64,000 nucleotides of DNA, from positions 352,001 to 416,000 of the forward strand of contig CAVZDU010000007.1 in assembly GCA_963774265.1 (NCBI GenBank), read 5' to 3'. Positions 23,058-32,874 of this stretch are shown piece by piece; the first letter of the stretch is position 1; every line of letters starts with the position of its first letter. The notes under the pieces are model-generated. The model saw only the letters and a list, made by a program, of their open reading frames with translations. It was not told where the DNA came from and did not search any database. The DNA is from an uncultured Chloroflexia bacterium. GTDB taxonomy: Bacteria; Chloroflexota; Anaerolineae; CG2-30-64-16. The translations under genes and the position numbers were made by a program.

Positions 23058-24779
23058 TCAACGGAGCAGCGGGAGCTGCGCTGTAATAGTGACGCCCTGA
23101 CCGGGGCTGGACGTAATCGTGAGCTGCCCACCGTAGAGTAGAACACGCTCGCGCATGCCCATCAGACCGAAGTGGCCCTGGTGGGCCAGGTCAGCCGGCT
23201 GCTCCGGCGGGGTAAAGCCGACGCCATCATCCCCTATGACCAGGGTGAGCGTAGCGGCTGCAAAGGTGACTTCCAACCAGGCTCGGCTGGCCTGGGCGTG
23301 AGCGGTCACGTTTGCCAGCGCCTGCTGCACGATGCGATAGGCGGCCAGTTCCAGATCGGAGGCCAGGCGAACCACCTGACCATGCACCGCTAGATGTACG
23401 CTCAGGCCATACCGCTCCTCGGTCTGGTGCGCCAGCATCTCGAGCGCGGGCACAAAGCCGAGATCTTCCAGGTAGATCGGTCGCAGGTCGCCGATGATCC
23501 GGCGCAGGCTCGCGACCTCCTCGTCAATCAGGCTGTTCAGCTCCTGGAGCCGGGCCTCGACACGGGCCGGGTCGCGGCCGAAGGCTTTCAACGCCATCTG
23601 GCCGCGCTGCTTGAGAGCGATGAGGCCCTGGATGGTGACGTCGTGCAGCTCGTGGGCCAGGCGGGTGCGCTCCGCCTCTTGGCCTTGGGTGATGGCGCTC
23701 AGGTAGTCCCGCATGCCACTCTGGTAGGACCGGATCCGCTCGGCCATCTGGGCCAGGGTGACGCGCAGGTCGTCTATTTCCTGCACGCCACCCACCGGCT
23801 GCTCGACTGCGTCGAAGTCCCCCCAGGCGACCCGCGCGGCCCGCCGATCCAGCTCCTGCAATGGCCGCACAACGCTGAGCACGCCGAAAGAGACAGCCAA
23901 CAGCGCGACCACTGCCACGAAGAGCAGGAGCAACGGCAGCACCTCGACCGCGCTCATGCCCATCGCGGTGATCGTGTGGACATCCTCGACGGTCGCCAAG
24001 GTCCAGCCCGGGGGTTCCACGTGCGCATAGGACACGAGCAGTTCCCGACCCTGGCGATCGCGCAGATAGGTCGAACCGGTGCTGGCCGGTGGCAAGCTGC
24101 CCAGCACCGCCGGATCCACAGCCAGACCGGCAGGGTCATGGTGGTGAACGCGCCGCCCGGTCTGGTCGAGGACGAACATGGCGCCCTGCATCTCGCCCTC
24201 TAGCAGCAGGTTGCTTTCGGCCAGGCTCAAGGCCTCCACCGGCAGCGCGCCGACCAAGACTTTCCCGCCGGACGCCGGCACGGCAATCAACAAGCGCGCG
24301 GCATCGTCACTTGACAGATCAGTCTCGTATTGCGTCTGGCCGACAGCCGCTGCGCGCGCGGCCAGGAGACGCGCCGTGTTGCTCGCCGCCCAAGCAGTTG
24401 CGGCCGGCGAAGCGGCCACGAGTGCGCCCTGGTCGTCCAGCCAGGCCAGACCACCGGTGAAACTGCCAATAGCATCAAGTGGTTGATCGGATAGGGTCGC
24501 AGGGAGCTCGGCAGCGGGTAATGTCGCCGCCAGGCGGGCCAGCACGGCAACCTGTTGCGCGATCTCGCGGCCTAAGCGGTTCGCTTCGGCGGCCGCCACG
24601 CCCCGGTCGCGATCTTCTACCAGGCGCGTCATCGCCTGCCGATGGCGCGTGACACCGGCGAGTGACAGTACGATCAACACCACTGCCAGCGGCAGGATGG
24701 TCCAGAGCAACAGTTGAGCGCGGAGACCGCGCAGGAGCCGATGGCGCCCGCGTGGCGGTCCGGTTGAATCAGGCGTCAT
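23058..24779 (-). CDS. Sensor histidine kinase (Cache-HAMP-HisKA_3)
   Basis: ERTRLAHELHD H-box, YRIVQQALANV, DDGVGF, GLMGMRER. Confidence 0.92.
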   Translation of the reverse strand: MTPDSTGPPRGRHRLLRGLRAQLLLWTILPLAVVLIVLSLAGVTRHRQAMTRLVEDRDRGVAAAEANRLGREIAQQVAVLARLAATLPAAELPATLSDQPLDAIGSFTGGLAWLDDQGALVAASPAATAWAASNTARLLAARAAAVGQTQYETDLSSDDAARLLIAVPASGGKVLVGALPVEALSLAESNLLLEGEMQGAMFVLDQTGRRVHHHDPAGLAVDPAVLGSLPPASTGSTYLRDRQGRELLVSYAHVEPPGWTLATVEDVHTITAMGMSAVEVLPLLLLFVAVVALLAVSFGVLSVVRPLQELDRRAARVAWGDFDAVEQPVGGVQEIDDLRVTLAQMAERIRSYQSGMRDYLSAITQGQEAERTRLAHELHDVTIQGLIALKQRGQMALKAFGRDPARVEARLQELNSLIDEEVASLRRIIGDLRPIYLEDLGFVPALEMLAHQTEERYGLSVHLAVHGQVVRLASDLELAAYRIVQQALANVTAHAQASRAWLEVTFAAATLTLVIGDDGVGFTPPEQPADLAHQGHFGLMGMRERVLLYGGQLTITSSPGQGVTITAQLPLLR

Positions 24780-25437
24780 CCAACACTAGCCAGCCCAGCT
24801 TCAGCGCCTTCGTCACCGCCTCGGTGCGGCTGGCAACCGCCAGCTTGCCGTAGATGCTGGCTAGATGCCCCTGCACCGTGCGATCGCTGACGCCCAATTC
24901 GGCAGCAATTGCTTTGTTGGTCAGGCCGTGGGCGGCCAGGCGCAACACCTCCAGCTCGCGCTCGGACAGTGGCTCGACCTGCTCGGCGGCCGCCGCCGGT
25001 TTGCCGGAGGTCATCTGCGCAACCACCTTAGCAGCGATGTCTGGAGCCAACACCTTGCCGCCGCTCGCGACCGTCTTCACTGCCCGCACCAGGTCGTCAG
25101 GGTCGCTGTTCTTCAGCACGTAGCCGTCGGCGCCGGCGCGCAGCAGGGCGAAAACGTACGGATCCTCATCGTAGGCGGTGAGGATCAGCACCCGGATCTC
25201 AGGGTAGGCGGCCTTGATCTGGCGCGTGGCCTCGATCCCGTTCACGCCGGGCATCTGCACGTCGAGCACGGCCACGGCCGGCCGGTATTCGCCAGCCAGG
25301 CGCACAGCCTCGGCGCCGCCGGATGCCTCCGCCACCACCGTGACCTCGCCGTCCTCTTCCAGGAACTCACGGATGCCTTTGCGCACGATGGCGTGGTCAT
25401 CGGCGAGCAAGACACGCAACGGCACAGAACCCATCAT
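24769..25437 (-). CDS. NarL/LuxR family response regulator
   Basis: LADDH, LDVQMP, LSERELEVL..GLTNKAIA. Confidence 0.95.
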   Translation of the reverse strand: MMGSVPLRVLLADDHAIVRKGIREFLEEDGEVTVVAEASGGAEAVRLAGEYRPAVAVLDVQMPGVNGIEATRQIKAAYPEIRVLILTAYDEDPYVFALLRAGADGYVLKNSDPDDLVRAVKTVASGGKVLAPDIAAKVVAQMTSGKPAAAAEQVEPLSERELEVLRLAAHGLTNKAIAAELGVSDRTVQGHLASIYGKLAVASRTEAVTKALKLGWLVLDDA

Positions 25438-25466
25438 GGCACACCGTCCTCTGTCACGCGACAGTA

Positions 25467-25895
25467 CTAACGTTGAACCAGGGAGCGTCCGCTGGCTTCC
25501 CAGGCGACCATGCCGCCGGTCAGGTCGTAGACGTGCGTGTAGCCCATCTCGACCAACCGCCGCGCGGCGATGTCGCTCATCCGTCCGCTGCGACAGTATA
25601 GCACGATCTTGGCGTCTTTGTCCGGCAGTTGCGCCAGGTGGGCGTCGATCTGATCGTAAGGGATCGAGAGATCGGTTCGCGGCAGGTCACCCTCAAAGGG
25701 AATGTGCACGTTGACCAGGGTGAAATCCTTCGGCCCCGCCAACATCCGAGCTAACTGGTCCGCGGTGAACCGGGTGATCTCTGCGCTGGCAGGGGTGGCA
25801 AGCCGCGCCGTGGTCTGCGGCAGTGGGGCCGCCGCACAGGCGCTCAAGATCACAGCTGCGGCGAGCCACAGCATGACAAGGTTCGGTATCTTCAT
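25467..25895 (-). CDS. Rhodanese-like lipoprotein
   Basis: Lipobox LSAC, active-site [16 protein letters not shown]. Confidence 0.9.
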
Positions 25896-26200: not shown

Positions 26201-26468
26201 AAATCTACCCTCACTTTCTCCAAGAGAGGCGGCATCGTATCACGCGACGCTTCGCACTTTCACCCTATATCATCGCGCAGCCGGGGCGGGGTGCCAGGGC
26301 TTTTTGGCGTAGATCGACATTAGGCCATTCAGCGCGGTCACTGCATGTGTTCCGTGCGCAACGCTATCATCACGCCAAATGGCGCATTCCCATCACGCCG
26401 GACGGCGCTTACCAGCGCGACGCCCGGTTGGTATACTACCGCTGAATGTCCGTATCAGGAGTAACCCT

Positions 26469-26901
26469 TTGACAAAACGACTTTTCCTTCTGCTTCCGGT
26501 CCTGCTGATCAGCAGCCTTTTGCTGGCCGCCTGCGGCGGCGGGCAAGCGAATCCCCAGGTCAAGCTGGCCCCCGTCTCGGCGCTGCCTATGCAGATGCAG
26601 CAAGCTCCTGCCGCAGTCCGCACAGCCTACCAGTTCGCCGTCGACCAACCCGGACGCCCTGCGGAACGTGCCGTGCTACTGCGGCTGCGGCGCCATCGGG
26701 CACAAGAGCAACCTGGCCTGCTACATCAAAGAGTTCGGCGCGGACGGCAAGCCGGTTTTCGACGATCACGCCATGGGCTGCAGCATCTGCGTGGACATCG
26801 CCACCGATGTGATGCAGATGACCGGCGAAGGCAAGTCGCCAACCGATATCCGGCAGCAGATCGTGGATACCTACAGCAAGTTCGGGCCGGCGAACCAGTG
26901 A
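26469..26901 (+). CDS. PCYCGC motif lipoprotein (frameshift near 26645)
   Basis: AGGAG RBS and TTG start, lipobox LAAC, AYQFAV, PCYCGC..GHKSNLACY, HAMGCSIC. Confidence 0.88.
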
Positions 26902-26927
26902 GCACGATGGCAAATGGCAGATAGCAG

Positions 26928-27388
26928 ATGGTGCTGAGCATGAGCCGAACACAATGGTGGGCGGGTGGCATTACCGTGTCACTCGTGCTGTTAACCTTGC
27001 TGGCGCCGCTGCCGGCGATGGGCGCGCCGCCGCAGGAGCGGCACATCACGATCTCGGCCCGCAGCTTTGCGTTCGAGCCAGGCACCGTGCGCGTGAACCG
27101 CGGCGATACGGTGATCGTCAACCTGGAATCAACCGATGTGGTGCACGGGTTGTACGTGGATGGCTACGGCGTCGCGACCCAGGCCGAGCCGGGCCGGCCG
27201 GGGCAAGCTCACCTTTCGTCGCCGACCGGAGCGGAGCCTTCCGCTTCCGCTGCAATGTGGCGTGCGGCAACTTGCACCCGTTCATGATCGGCAAGCTGGT
27301 CGTCGGCCCGAATCTGACCTGGCTGCGGGCGATCGCGGCCACGCTGATCACGGCGGTCGGCGCGCTGGCCGTCTTCTGGAAACGCTGA
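26928..27388 (+). CDS. CuA-type cupredoxin (COX2-like) protein with C-terminal TM (frameshift near 27210)
   Basis: DVVHGL plus CNVACGNLHPFM (H...C-x3-C-x3-H-x2-M). Confidence 0.82.
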
Positions 27389-28750
27389 TGCGCTACGCCA
27401 TTTCGGAGATCCCGGTCATCAAGCGCGTGCTCCGCGTCGCGCTGGCTCCAGTGGAGTCTGACCGCGCTCACGCTGCTTTTCTTCGTGCTGGCGATCATCG
27501 CGGGGCTGGTCGGCACGCCAGCCGGCAACCGCAACTTCGGCATCGTCTTCGTCTGGATCGTCTGGTGGGCGCTGCTGATCCTGCTGCTGGTGCCGTTCGC
27601 GGGCCGGCTGTGGTGCGGCGTCTGTCCCATCCCGGCGCCGGGCGAATGGCTCCAGCGCCGCGCCCTGGTCCAGCCGCGGCCGGGCGGCAAGCTCTACACG
27701 CTGGGCAAGAAGTGGCCCAAGGCCTTGCGCAACATCTGGCTGCAAAACGCCGGCTTCCTGGGTGTGGCGCTCTTTTCCAGCGTCATCCTGACGACGCCCA
27801 TGGCCACGGCGCTGGTGTTGCTCGGCTTCATGATCGTGGCCATCGGCACGAGCCTGGTCTTCGAGCGGCGCACCTTCTGCCGCTACCTCTGCCCGGTCGG
27901 CGGCTTCATCGGGCTGTACAGCCAGGTCGCGCCGATCGAGCTGCGGGTGAAGGACACCGATGTCTGCGCCAGCCACACCGAGAAGACCTGCTACACCGGC
28001 AGCGACGAGGGCTACGGCTGCCCCTGGCTGGTCTTCCCCGGCGGCCTGACGAACAACACCTACTGCGGGCTGTGCACCGAGTGTCTGAAGACCTGCACGC
28101 GCGACAACATCGCCATCTTCGTGCGCCAGCCCGGCGCCGACCTGCTGAAGACCACCGGCCACAAGCTCGATGAAGCCTACAAGGGTCTGATCATGCTGGC
28201 CTGCGCGTTCATCTACTCGACGGTGCTGATCGGGCCGTGGGGCGTGCTGAAGGAAACTGCACGGGCGGTGGGCACGCCGGGCTGGTTTGCCTACGCCGGT
28301 ATCTTCCTGGCGCTGAACCTGGCGATCCTGCCCGGTCTGTTCTGGCTGGCTGTGCGCGGCGGACAACTGATCGGCAGCCCAGCCAAGACCTCCATCCGTA
28401 AGCTTTTCGCCGATTACGCGGCCGTGTTGGTGCCGTTGGGCCTGACCGCCTGGGTCGCGTTCTCGCTGTCGTTCGTGTTGATCAACTTCTCCTATGCCTG
28501 GTCGGTGCTCTCCGACCCGCTGGGCTGGGGCTGGAACCTGCTGGGCACGGTCGGTCTGAAATGGACGCCCTACATCCCAGGGCTCGTGCCCTATCTGCAA
28601 GTGCCGGTGCTGCTGCTCGGCCTGACTGCCGCGCTCGCGTTGGCGCTGCGCACGGCCCGCCAACACGGCCAATCGCCGTGGGCCGCGACGCCAGTGGCGG
28701 TCTTCTGCACCGCCGCGACACTGGGGCTGTTGGGCCTCTACCTGGCCTGA
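27388..28750 (+). CDS. Membrane polyferredoxin (NapH/NosR/FixG-like 4Fe-4S binding protein); frameshift near 27435
   Basis: GRLWCGVCP, RTFCRYLCP, CGLCTECLKTC, multiple TMs. Confidence 0.88.
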
Positions 28751-28787
28751 GGTCGGGCAACGCATAGACAGGGGCATAAGGAAAACG

Positions 28788-29800
28788 ATGGCACGCGGTA
28801 GATCACGGGGCAAGGGAGAGCTTTTTGCGCTGGGCGTTGTCCTGCTGGTGCTCGTGGCCTTCCCGGCCGGCATCTTCGGCTACCAGGCGTGGCGGGTGGC
28901 CTCGGCTGGCGTCAAGGCTGTGGACATCATGGCCCGCGCGCCGGAACAAGGCGGGTTCAGCCCGGATCGGCTGAGCCTCCGGGTGGGTGAGACGGTCGGC
29001 TGCGCATCAGCTCGCCGGACGTGGTGCACGGGTTGACCATCCCTGGCCTGGGCGTCAATGTCGATGAGATCTACCCCGGCAAGGTGGTTGAGGTGGACGT
29101 GACGCCGGACAAGCCGGGGCGTTATGCCTTCGCCTGCACCCGCTGGTGCAGCGTTGATCACTGGCGCATGCGCGGGGTCATCGAGGTGACAGGCGATGGC
29201 CGGCGCGGTCCTGCCGACGGAACAGCCGCCCCTGTTCCAGCAGCTCGGCATCGACATCGACGCCATGCGGCCTGCGGCGCAGGCCACGCCCGAACGCCCG
29301 GCCCTCGATCGCTGCGGGTGCAGCGTTGAACGCGAAGCTGCCGCAGGATCTGACCGACCCGGCCAAGCGCCGCACGCTGACACCCGCCGACGCGTTCCAT
29401 AATCTGCGGGCCGATCCCGCCAACGCCGCGCTGAGCGACGCCGACGTGTGGAACCTGGTGGCCTGGGCCTGGCTCAAGGATGTGCCGCCCGACCGCGCTG
29501 GCGCGCGCCGAGACGCTCTACGCCCGCGACTGCGCGGCCTGCCACGGCCCGGATGGCAAGGGGCAGGGGCCGGCCGGGGTGAATCTGCCCGGCAAGGCCA
29601 AGATGGACCCAGCCATGCCCAAAGGCCCGGCGGACTTCACCGAGGCCGGTGCGATGCTGGCGGCCAGCGACGTGCTGCTCCAGGGCAAGCTGCTGCGCGG
29701 CGGCATGGGCACCGGCATGCCGGAGTTCGGCTCGCTGTATTCCGATGAAGAGCAGTGGGCGATGATCGCCTATCTGCGTACATTTCTGTTCGAGAAATAA
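28788..29800 (+). CDS. CuA cupredoxin-cytochrome c fusion (several frameshifts)
   Basis: N-terminal TM, DVVHGL, CTRWCSVDHWRM, then CAACHG...GTGMPEFG. Confidence 0.8.
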
Positions 29801-29828
29801 CACCACGGCTGACAAGAAGGAGGAATGG

Positions 29829-30345
29829 ATGCCTAGTAAGACCAATCAACTACCGAAGGGCGGGAAGGTCAATACCCCGCCCGCGAAGCGCAACGTTCTG
29901 CCGCTCTATCTGGGCGGCGGCGCGCTGCTGGTGATCATCATCGGCGTCGTGCTGATGGCAAATGCCGGGCGCGGTTCGTCCGGTTCGAGCGTTCCGGCAC
30001 AGGTGACCGGCAAGCCAAGCCTGCCTTGTCGATCGAGAGCAGATCGACTTCGGCAAGGTGCCGCTTGACATACCGGTCAAGGCCACCTTCAAGCTCAGCA
30101 ACGTCGGCGATCAGCCGCTGCAGATCCTGAGCCAGCCGGTCGTCGAAGTCAAGCAGGGCTGCTGACCGCCCAAAGCTGTCGTCGGTTCGACGACCATCAA
30201 GCCCGGTCAGAGCACGGAGCTCTCGATGGAATTCATGATGCACAAGGGCATGGAAGGCGCACACGATTTCCGAGTTAAGGTAAAGACTAACGATCCGGTC
30301 AATCCGGAGCAGGAACTGGTCGTGCTATCGGATTGGGGGAAGTGA
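29829..30345 (+). CDS. DUF1573-like Ig-fold membrane-anchored protein, predicted selenoprotein (TGA at 30163-30165); frameshift near 30025
   Basis: AGGAGG RBS; TM; IDFGKV..FKLSNVGDQPLQI..EVKQGC-TGA-PPKAVVGSTTIKPGQSTELSMEFMMHKGMEGAHDFRVKVKTNDP..SDWGK*. The domain continues in frame past the TGA. Confidence 0.8.
30178..30194 (+). promoter_or_regulatory. Bacterial SECIS-like hairpin
   Basis: GTCGTCG-GTT-CGACGAC perfect 7-bp stem with a G/U loop, starting 12 nt after the in-frame TGA. Confidence 0.7.
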
Positions 30346-30506: not shown

Positions 30507-30562
30507 GAGACGTGAAACGTGATTACGCAGCACGCAGCACGCATCACCCATCACGCATCACG
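30507..30562. repeat. Heptamer tandem repeats
   Basis: GAGACGT GAAACGT GATTACG CAGCACG CAGCACG CATCACC CATCACG CATCACG. Confidence 0.65.
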
Positions 30563-31502
30563 CCCCACACACCTTCACCCACGGCTCGCTCAAGTCATAC
30601 TCCGTGAAGCCCAGGCTGGCGTATAGCGAGCCGGCGGCCTCCGAGTAGGAGCCGACCGCGCAGAGGGTGGCGCCCAGGTCGGCCACGCGGCGCAGCCCTT
30701 CGGCCATCAGCGCCCGGCCCACGCCGCGGCGACGGTGGTCGGGATGCGTGCCCACCGGCTCGAACGCGGCCGTGCGGGTCACGTCGTCGAACCAGAGCGT
30801 GCAGAACGCGGCCAGCTCGCCATCGGGTGCGACGGCCACCAGGTCGAGATCGCGGCGGTAGAGCGGCGCGTGCTGCACGTTGCGATACCAGGTCCAGCCC
30901 TCGTACTTCTCATCCGGTTCGTCGGGGTGGAACGCCCGCCACGAGACCCAACTGCGTGCCGGGTGCTCATCCACGTCGCCCAGCGCGCGCACCGTGTAAC
31001 CGGCGGGCGGGGCGAGGTCGGGGATGGCCGCCGCAGCCATGCGGCGGCGCTGATATTCAGGGTAGTCGCCGCGCGTGTAGCCGCGGCGGGCCAGCAGATC
31101 CTGCCGCACCGCATCCGCCTCATGCGCCCAAATGACCAGCCGCCGGCTGTCGTCGGCCTGGGTGACGGCGAACTGCGTCTCGGCGGCCGAGATCATCACC
31201 TCTTCCAGCTCGGCCGAGCGGAAGGCGGGGTGGACCTGCAAGACCGCCTCGCCCGCGCCCTCGGGATGGAGCACGGCCGCCAGCCGGCCCTCGCCGGTCT
31301 CCCACAGGAACACGGCCGCGCCCAGGTCGAACCGGAAGATGTTCTCGTTGACGTGCCAGCGCCAATAGTCCCAGCGGTACAGCGGCCAGCTCGCCTCGCG
31401 GCGACCGTTCAGCAAGAAAACCTCGCGCAGGAACGCGCGGATCGCCCAATAATCATCCTCCGAACGGTATTTGCGGCGGCCTGGGCGCGGCTGGACGCGC
31501 AA
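30558..31502 (-). CDS. GNAT family N-acetyltransferase
   Basis: FEPVGTHPDHRRRGVGRALM acetyl-CoA motif, LYASLGF. Confidence 0.9.
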   Translation of the reverse strand: MRVQPRPGRRKYRSEDDYWAIRAFLREVFLLNGRREASWPLYRWDYWRWHVNENIFRFDLGAAVFLWETGEGRLAAVLHPEGAGEAVLQVHPAFRSAELEEVMISAAETQFAVTQADDSRRLVIWAHEADAVRQDLLARRGYTRGDYPEYQRRRMAAAAIPDLAPPAGYTVRALGDVDEHPARSWVSWRAFHPDEPDEKYEGWTWYRNVQHAPLYRRDLDLVAVAPDGELAAFCTLWFDDVTRTAAFEPVGTHPDHRRRGVGRALMAEGLRRVADLGATLCAVGSYSEAAGSLYASLGFTEYDLSEPWVKVCGA

Positions 31503-31728: not shown

Positions 31729-32874
31729 ATGACGTTACCGTTGCGACCCGTGGTCCCAGGTCTATCAGGCGAGCGCTTCAAAGTCCACTACCAGATTGCT
31801 GGTGCCGAGGCTGAGGCGCGGTCACTGGCCGAAACAGCCCGAGTTGAGCAGAGCGTCGAATTCCCCGCAGAGCTCGTGCCCGATGGCGACATCCGGGATC
31901 GCATCATGGGCCAACTGGAAGCGTTCGAGCCATGCGGCGAGGGGCGCTTCCGAGCGACGATCAGCTTCGCGGTGGAGAGCGCGGGTACCGAGCTGACTCA
32001 GCTCATCAATCTGCTGTGGGGCACGGGCAGTTTCTTCCCCGGATTCCGGGTGGAACGCGCCGAGCTGCCAGCGAGTCTCTTGGCCTACTATCATGGGCCG
32101 CGCTTCGGGGTCACGGGCCTCCGGGCGCGGGTCAAGATCTACGACCGGCCGCTGCTTTGCACCGCAATCAAGCCGATGGGGTTGACGCCGCAGTATCTGG
32201 CCGAAATGGCCTATGCGTGCGCGCTCGGCGGCATGGACCTCATCAAAGATGACCACGGCATCACCGATCAACCGTTTTGCCGTTTCGAGGAGCGGGTGAC
32301 TCAATGCGCCGAGGCGGTCGCGCGCGCCAACCGGGAGACGGGATTCTCCTGCCTCTACGTCCCGAATGTCACCGGGCCCACCGACCAGATCCTCGCCCGG
32401 GCCCGGTTCGCCAGCGAGGCAGGCGCGGGCGGGATCATGATCAGCCCTGGGCTCACCGGCTTCGACGCCATGCGCCAGGTAGCCGATGACAACCGGGTGA
32501 AGTTGCCGATCCTCAGCCACCCCACCGGCACCGGGCACTGTGTGCTGCACCCAGAACACGGCTTTTCGCATTATCTTTTTTACGGCCAGTTGCAGCGCCT
32601 GGCCGGCGCCGACTCCAGCATCTACATCCAACAGGGCGGTCGTTTCCAGGTGCGCCCTGAGGACTGTTTTGCAGCGCGCGACGGGTGCCGAGACGAGCTG
32701 GGCCACATTCGGCCGATCATGCCCATGCCGGGCGGCGGCATGACGCGGGAACGAATCGCAGCACTCAAGGAGATGTACGGCGCTGAGGTCATCTTTCTGG
32801 TGGGAGGCGGGCTGCACAGGATGGGTCCCGATCTGGCCGAAAACGTTCGCCAGTTGGTCAGCGCCGTGCGGTGA
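31729..32874 (+). CDS. RuBisCO-like protein (form IV, DeepYkr-like)
   Basis: EQSVE, GPRFG, AIKPMG, GGMDLIKDDHG carbamate motif, PGGGM, GGGL. Confidence 0.92.
   Translation: MTLPLRPVVPGLSGERFKVHYQIAGAEAEARSLAETARVEQSVEFPAELVPDGDIRDRIMGQLEAFEPCGEGRFRATISFAVESAGTELTQLINLLWGTGSFFPGFRVERAELPASLLAYYHGPRFGVTGLRARVKIYDRPLLCTAIKPMGLTPQYLAEMAYACALGGMDLIKDDHGITDQPFCRFEERVTQCAEAVARANRETGFSCLYVPNVTGPTDQILARARFASEAGAGGIMISPGLTGFDAMRQVADDNRVKLPILSHPTGTGHCVLHPEHGFSHYLFYGQLQRLAGADSSIYIQQGGRFQVRPEDCFAARDGCRDELGHIRPIMPMPGGGMTRERIAALKEMYGAEVIFLVGGGLHRMGPDLAENVRQLVSAVR

Follow-up and report, generated by a model that had tools for sequence, protein, structure and literature searches.

One DUF1573 selenoprotein is catalogued in the published lists examined, namely OS_HP2, with the motif UxC or UGC (PMC13188914, PMC9312934, PMC1976440, PMC2398784). 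It was predicted in Olavius symbionts in a 2007 survey (PMC1976440, Table 2). A survey from 2008 records it in GOS with the motif UxC (PMC2398784), and the surveys of 2022 (PMC9312934) and 2026 (PMC13188914) list it with the motif UGC. Table 1 of the 2026 survey holds 119 families, and a different position of the selenocysteine (Sec, U) is taken there to define a distinct subfamily. The same table gives the motif C-U for a set of metal-handling proteins: CopZ-like 2Fe-2S form 2, MerB-like SaoL, HgcA, SaoC, and MbdU (PMC13188914).

The window, which is the whole stretch of DNA analysed (64,000 nucleotides from an uncultured Chloroflexia bacterium), contains what is almost certainly a real, misannotated selenoprotein gene. 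Its sequence points to a Cys-Sec variant of the DUF1573 selenoproteins, located in a CuA/polyferredoxin operon. The features of this gene, here called the C-U gene, are collected in Table 1 together with its neighbours. Its frame contains a TGA at 30163-30165 and then runs for 59 codons up to a second TGA at 30343-30345. Read through, it gives ...EVKQGC-U-PPKAVVGSTTIKPGQSTELSMEFMMHKGMEGAHDFRVKVKTNDP...SDWGK, and the stretch past the Sec can be followed as ...EVKQGC-U-PPKAVVGSTT...MMHKGMEGAHDF...TNDP...SDWGK. The preliminary description had found this TGA, a hairpin 12 nt further on, and the 59 codons, all of which stand; it had missed a frameshift near 30023, which is discussed below.

The predicted product is a membrane-anchored protein of about 171 residues, and it is very probably a selenoprotein. 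In the first part of the coding sequence, a basic N-terminal tail is followed by a single hydrophobic helix (V23-A44, 29895-29960) and then by a Gly/Ser-rich linker. The tail and the helix probably form a membrane anchor, with the domain outside. A scan for promoters and terminators between 27000 and 30700 returned nothing useful.

Table 1. Features of the C-U gene and its surroundings, in coordinates of the window.
Feature	Position	Strand	Basis or remark
Histidine kinase	23058..24779	-	Divergent; named by likeness to neighbour clusters, no family scan
LuxR-type response regulator	24769..25437	-	Divergent; named by likeness to neighbour clusters, no family scan
Rhodanese-like protein	25467..25895	-	Divergent; named by likeness to neighbour clusters, no family scan
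PCYCGC lipoprotein, Cys form, frame broken here	26379..26930	+	Orthologue, PF13798
Small CuA-type cupredoxin, frame broken here	26928..27388	+	Orthologue L125:3117-3557
NapH/MauN-like membrane polyferredoxin	27485..28750	+	Family scan of orthologue
CuA-type cupredoxin (C-x3-C-x3-H-x2-M) fused to cytochrome c, frame broken here	28788..29800	+	Intact orthologue L125:4985-5980
Shine-Dalgarno-like AAGGAGG	29817..29823	+	Read from sequence; 5 nt ahead of ATG at 29829
Coding sequence, part 1 (frame of 29829)	29829..30022	+	Translation; same layout in orthologues
1-nt insertion relative to orthologues, frame shift +1	30021..30024	+	Alignment with L023 and L024
Coding sequence, part 2: DUF1573-like Ig-fold domain, 106 aa with Sec	30025..30342	+	Pfam, AlphaFold2, PDB 2qsv
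Cys46-Sec47 dyad (TGC TGA), predicted, inside invariant G-C-U-P-P	30160..30165	+	Translation and family alignment
Putative SECIS hairpin, 7-bp stem, apical G-U-U with G and U invariant	30178..30194	+	Covariation
M-M-H-x-G-M-x-G-x-H-D-F loop	30235..30270	+	Invariant M76, G78, H80, F82; nearly invariant M72, H73, G75, D81
True stop TGA, no hairpin behind	30343..30345	+	Sequence and translation

If the TGA encodes Sec, related genes are expected to carry either TGA or a cysteine codon at the same column, and this alternation had been suggested earlier as a check. Across the family, 102 of 122 genes have TGA at the Sec column and the other 20 have TGC or TGT, giving G-C-C-P-P; there are no Trp or Gly alleles. 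The 20 Cys loci are made up of 19 of the 80 named genome records and one further locus, L040. The named records as a whole divide into 61 TGA, 12 TGC, and 7 TGT alleles. A search of the genomes of 40 relatives found 14 homologous places in 12 genomes, each with a single TGA, at an identity of 58-89% that extends to the end of the query. In a sample of the phylum (401 genomes), matches came from 26 genomes, and one TGA was present in 31 of the 33 places. When the loci were extracted, E/Q-G-C-U-P occurred at one column in 42 of the 43 that belong to the family; the remaining one is L040, which has TGT. A further hit among the relatives, L035, belongs to the canonical DUF1573 proteins, with S-C-G-C-T, and was placed outside the family.

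Database proteins give a similar picture. The closest entries are 110-117 aa long and cover about 40% of the query. The three short entries that were fetched stop at ...GC, and are therefore truncated at the TGA. The full-length database proteins of the Cys form that were fetched, on the other side of the alternation, read G-C-C-P-P. Two database proteins have other residues at the Sec column: Ser in P0002, and Trp in P0045, which loses similarity afterwards. Either a sequencing error or a change of one base in the TGA may explain these two.

Summed over 14 comparisons with the window, which are not independent of one another, pN/pS is 0.30 downstream of the TGA and 0.42 upstream. Judged by these ratios, the codons past the TGA evolve under purifying selection. 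A tree of 122 rows (102 Sec, 20 Cys), built with the trait column masked and without L035 and one locus that had too little flank, requires at least 8 switches between Sec and Cys, at least 4 of which are forced by well-supported branches. None of the sequencing runs listed contains this stretch (the best share of words was 0.11), none of them is of RNA, and the contigs that could be aligned are those of relatives; such contigs from four runs show no difference from the window at 30163-30165 among the rows listed.

The hairpin after the TGA provides a second line of evidence. The preliminary description gave it as a perfect 7-bp hairpin, GTCGTCG-GTT-CGACGAC, lying 12 nt past the TGA, and the sequence confirms this: the two sides of the stem occupy 30178-30184 and 30188-30194, the loop 30185-30187, and the spacer 30166-30177. 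Folded as a single sequence, it has a minimum free energy of -9.8 kcal/mol (z = -0.89), and 32 of 200 shuffled sequences fold equally well. A search of Rfam gave no match to it at E <= 1. By energy alone the hairpin is thus unremarkable, and it is the comparison across genomes that places it above chance.

For this comparison, 42 TGA alleles were used, 40 of them distinct. The hairpin lies at the same offset from the TGA in all of them, 97.9% of cells are paired, and compensatory double changes occur in four of the seven pairs. For instance, GTCGTCG/CGACGAC in one allele corresponds to ACCATCG/CGATGGT in another. Cells in which both sides have changed number 49, as against 17.4 +/- 3.3 after shuffling, and none of 500 shuffles reaches 49; in controls slid along the sequence, 13-73% of cells pair. 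The apical G and U are invariant among TGA alleles. The changes in the stem carry over into the protein sequence (from V-V-G-S-T-T to T-I-G-S-M-V), and therefore the RNA constrains the protein.

The earlier expectation that the hairpin would be conserved in TGA alleles and lost from Cys alleles holds for all but one of the latter. Among the 80 named loci, TGA alleles keep a mean of 6.7 of the 7 pairs (minimum 5), TGC alleles 2.8, and TGT alleles 3.7. The hairpin was found in 61 of 61 TGA alleles of these records and is missing from all 19 Cys alleles there. The exception among the 20 Cys alleles is L040, which has TGT and retains the complete hairpin. Its sister is L041, a TGA allele from the same genus, and L040 looks in sequence like the outcome of a very recent change from TGA to TGT. 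The two loci are on G125:C13 (L040) and G143:C2 (L041), and genome G125 still has a tRNA-Sec.

The decoding of UGA as Sec depends on SelA, SelB, SelD, and the tRNA encoded by selC. All four had been named as something to look for, and all are present in the genome, as judged by profile scores and, for the tRNA, by score together with ARAGORN. The tRNA-Sec reaches 73.2 bits (cut-off 47) and is called tRNA-SeC with anticodon tca. The scores for selA and selB are 506 and 293 bits, the latter rising to 333 with a neighbouring piece. The selD match (L019, G000:C1:464620-465552; 382 bits) contains one in-frame TGA, and therefore SelD is probably a selenoprotein here too. Five other carriers were examined in the same way, four of the TGA form and one of the Cys form (G125), and all five genomes have a tRNA-Sec above the cut-off.

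The original claim of a selenoprotein is thus borne out by the machinery, the conservation of the TGA, the Cys alleles, the covariation of the hairpin, and the pN/pS ratios. The TGA at 30163-30165 is very probably a Sec codon, which the genome's own SelA, SelB, SelC, and SelD would decode, with the hairpin in the coding region directing the insertion from 12 nt downstream.

The domain that carries the Sec had been described as a DUF1573-like Ig fold, and both sequence and structure agree with this. The Pfam family DUF1573 (PF07610) matches with 42.2 bits, above its gathering threshold of 26.1 (E 8.6e-11). From a 45-row alignment, AlphaFold2 predicts an eight-strand Ig sandwich with a mean pLDDT of 96.7. 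Among solved structures the best match is 2qsv, from a functionally uncharacterised Porphyromonas protein, which aligns over 98 residues with a Z of 13.0 and an rmsd of 1.7 A (Foldseek E 2.5e-05). The remaining structural matches listed are generic Ig domains of the DUF1573, ASH, PapD, and HYDIN types, and a profile search against PDB sequences found only HYDIN/ASH-type repeats. Fifteen residues are invariant in the 45-row alignment: G10, N26, G28, P38, G45, C46, U47, P48, P49, G61, M76, G78, H80, F82, and D90. From the order of the strands in the model, loops 26-31, 45-50 (G-C-U-P-P), and 71-77 (M-M-H-x-G-M) are predicted to share one end of the sandwich. No known copper-chaperone family (PCuAC, CopC, CusF, and similar) matched in Pfam at E <= 1, and there is no copper-chaperone structure among the matches listed by Foldseek and VIA-align.

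The C-U gene is the last of a conserved operon. In order, its members are a PCYCGC lipoprotein, a small cupredoxin, a NapH-like polyferredoxin, a CuA cupredoxin-cytochrome c, and the C-U gene. This arrangement was derived by clustering the neighbours of 80 loci, many of them on short contigs, and by family scans of one intact example, L125. The window shows the same order from 26379 to 30345. Within 5 kb, the PCYCGC protein occurs at 52 of the 80 loci, the small cupredoxin at 45, and the NapH-like protein and the CuA cupredoxin-cytochrome c at 46 each. All four partners are found beside Sec forms and Cys forms alike.

The small cupredoxin has the CuA-type motif C-x3-C-x3-H-x2-M, and the cupredoxin-cytochrome c has invariant H69, C105, C109, H113, and M116. 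The PCYCGC protein (26379-26930 in the window) is related to another catalogued family of (seleno)proteins, OS_HP4/CYCXC; its counterpart in L125 scores 71.5 bits with the model NF041379 OS_HP4_CYCXC, under the cut-off of 90. A search for Sec forms of this neighbour found only Cys in 60 of 60 motifs in the loci.

Other frequent neighbours are a response regulator, a histidine kinase, DUF2085, Cys/His-rich proteins that fall into no known family, and a P1B-type ATPase, which is of the copper type near the gene in 15 loci. Relatives' loci are flanked by the same types of gene as the kinase, regulator, and rhodanese block of the window (23058..25895). The adjoining two-component system belongs to the LuxR/NarL type rather than to the known copper sensors. 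Downstream of the operon in L125 and its relatives are two conserved genes that match nothing in Pfam or NCBIfam (L125:6626-7063 and L125:7844-8860). Their Cys/His-rich motifs are C-P-C-P-H-H...C-D-C in one and P-C-C...C-N-H-G-M in the other, and both genes may encode additional metal-binding proteins of the cluster. Their counterparts do not adjoin the C-U gene in the window. Judged by eye, the open reading frames that follow there resemble an acetyltransferase (30558-31502, minus strand) and a RuBisCO large-subunit-like protein (31729-32874, plus strand).

The explanation that best covers the whole, and that is considered likely, combines the decoding of Sec with a copper site that serves the CuA cupredoxins. 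The product would carry a vicinal Cys-Sec dyad in the invariant G-C-U-P-P loop. The dyad and the invariant Met/His loop (M-H-x-G-M-x-G-x-H), both predicted at one end of the sandwich, would jointly bind a soft metal, with Cu(I) as the likeliest candidate. The C-U protein would then act as a copper donor or carrier for the CuA-type cupredoxins encoded just upstream. It would belong to an extracytoplasmic module for copper and electron transfer encoded by the operon, along with the PCYCGC lipoprotein, the two CuA cupredoxins, the NapH-like polyferredoxin, and the cytochrome c. The binding of copper by the Cys-Sec/Met-His site, as suggested by sequence and model, is the tentative part of this explanation and falls a little short of probable. 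The Cu(I) or redox function put forward in the preliminary description is plausible in view of the operon and of the conserved Cys-Sec and Met/His residues, and a copper-type ATPase near 15 loci also speaks for copper. Counting against copper are the lack of a copper-chaperone match in Pfam at E <= 1, the generic character of the Ig domains among the structural matches listed, and the LuxR/NarL type of the two-component system.

Another model for the site is redox chemistry rather than metal binding. In this model, which is judged unlikely, the dyad would cycle between selenol/thiol and selenylsulfide. It could act as a reductant of the cysteines of the CuA site or of the PCYCGC protein, as TlpA does, or as the terminal catalytic site of a chain of polyferredoxin, CuA protein, and cytochrome c. 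Most bacterial selenoproteins are redox proteins, according to the parts of the 2026 survey drawn on here (PMC13188914). The operon encodes an electron-transfer chain that has no obvious catalytic subunit, and the exchange of Cys and Sec is typical of redox-active cysteines. Against this, the thiol-disulfide oxidoreductases in the catalogue, as far as its table goes, are UxxC or CxxU proteins on a thioredoxin fold, whereas the C-U protein has an Ig fold. A vicinal selenylsulfide forms an eight-membered ring, which is strained, and this also counts against a redox cycle. Likewise, the invariant Met/His loop would be left without a clear role in pure thiol chemistry. The metal reading is preferred because the C-U proteins in the catalogue's table are mostly metal-handling and the redox ones are UxxC or CxxU.

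Alternately, the Cys-Sec protein may be the terminal reactive site of an undescribed extracytoplasmic respiratory or detoxifying chain, and not a chaperone, although this is quite improbable. The NapH-like quinol dehydrogenase would hand electrons to the two stand-alone CuA cupredoxins and the cytochrome c, and these would pass them on to the selenol, which would reduce or oxidise an external metal or chalcogen species, for example Cu(II)/Cu(I). If true, this would be the first selenoenzyme on an Ig fold that is fed by CuA centres.

As assembled, the two parts of the coding sequence of the C-U gene are in frames that differ by +1. A short, near-identical contig from run X2 (record 12: 29979-30115, 4 other letters, depth 3.5) is without one base at 30023. 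Frame breaks also occur in the PCYCGC gene, in both cupredoxin genes, and in selA, which is in two frames, and an elongation-factor-like match in the same assembly contains an in-frame TGA and TAG. The places concerned are 26379-29800 in the window, G000:C1:1423592-1424922, and G000:C7:12502-13233. The assembly consists of 10 contigs and has an estimated completeness of only 84%. This pattern fits the indel errors of a long-read assembly, and since the same kind of break is found in most genes of the operon and in selA, the frameshift near 30023 is read as an assembly indel. That it is an assembly error is quite probable.

Should the insertion of one nucleotide be real, this copy would be a pseudogene whose protein is no longer made, within a family that still consists of true selenoproteins. 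The extra base relative to two orthologues and to the near-identical metagenome contig speaks for such a loss. It is nevertheless a doubtful reading, given the breaks in nearly every gene of the operon, in selA, and in elongation-factor-like matches, the pattern of indel errors in an incomplete 10-contig assembly, and the lack of decay in the downstream codons.

It is scarcely credible that the TGA is a normal stop codon or a miscalled base, with a chance or decaying frame behind it, or that it is read as Trp or Gly: gene callers do end the protein at ...GC, and one database protein each has Trp and Ser at the column, but TGA recurs there in many genomes, selection and covariation persist beyond it, the other alleles of the family have Cys and not Trp or Gly, and the genome has the complete Sec machinery. 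The gene itself also terminates in TGA, which therefore does not serve generally as a sense codon here; together with the Cys alleles and the Sec machinery, this led to the rejection of an alternative genetic code in which TGA is Trp or Gly.

The C-U genes enlarge the bacterial selenoproteome by a large subfamily that spans the phylum. Chloroflexota account for most of it, and it also occurs in records with the labels Actinomycetota and Acidobacteriota. The TGA form is present in a record labelled Litorilinea aerophila (L072). The TGA with its hairpin outside Chloroflexota was seen in records labelled Acidimicrobiia, Actinomycetes, and Acidobacteria (L076, L077, L126, L134). Four Gemmatimonadota records (L087, L097, L111, L119) have the same operon with a Cys form of the gene. 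Because gene calls cut the protein off after about 110 residues, the annotation and the selenoproteome counts for these lineages are wrong. The carriers are abundant, mostly uncultured bacteria of soil, sediment, and wastewater. In them, a selenol would be placed beside a thiol, probably outside the cell, within an operon of stand-alone CuA proteins. This offers a testable tie between the use of selenium and either copper handling or extracellular electron transfer.

The relationship to OS_HP2 can be stated from profile scores and from the position of the Sec. The OS_HP2 model NF041425 gives the C-U gene 35.8 bits, and 34.4 in the genome search, against a cut-off of 100; the other selenoprotein models of NCBIfam have no match to it at E <= 1. 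With hhalign, E-G-C-U pairs with C-G-C-T of the canonical S-C-G-C-T DUF1573 domain, the alignment being to that domain and not to an OS_HP2 sequence, and by this pairing the Sec therefore lies three columns after the OS_HP2 Sec position. Under the rule on Sec position given in PMC13188914, the C-U subfamily is therefore distinct, and uncatalogued in the published lists examined. No description of the subfamily or its operon was found in the literature covered, and supplementary selenoproteome tables could list it. A DUF1573 selenoprotein with U-x-C was therefore already known, and it is the C-U subfamily that is new relative to the published lists, supplements aside.

OS_HP2 and the C-U family, as far as the published lists describe the former, share the DUF1573-like Ig fold, a Sec in the same Cys-bearing loop, Cys homologues, and a prediction that rests on TGA and SECIS. 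They differ in that the Sec of OS_HP2 replaces the first Cys of C-G-C, while that of the C-U gene follows the residue aligned to the second Cys. The C-U family also has the vicinal C-U dyad, an invariant P-P, the Met/His loop, and an operon of its own. With CopZ-like form 2, SaoL, HgcA, SaoC, and MbdU, compared here by the motif column of the table, it shares the vicinal Cys-Sec, a proposed role as a ligand of soft metals or organometals, and Cys-Cys homologues. Their folds and families are unrelated, and none of these proteins is an Ig-fold, membrane-anchored member of a CuA operon.

In function, the nearest comparison would be with the assembly factors of CuA. These are PCuAC, whose ligands are Met/His, and Sco/TlpA, with Cys ligands in Sco. 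The proposed job of the C-U protein is the same, namely to supply a CuA cupredoxin with Cu(I) outside the cytoplasm while tethered to the membrane, or to reduce the cysteines of the cupredoxin. In contrast, there is no match in sequence at E <= 1, and no such fold is among the structural matches listed. To our knowledge, no PCuAC or Sco/TlpA member contains selenium.

Finally, the bacterial SECIS within a coding region is exemplified by that of E. coli fdhF. The hairpin of the C-U gene resembles this type in being short, in lying inside the coding sequence 11-12 nt past the UGA, and in its conserved apical G-U. It differs in its stem, which is perfectly paired over 7 bp and lacks the bulged U.
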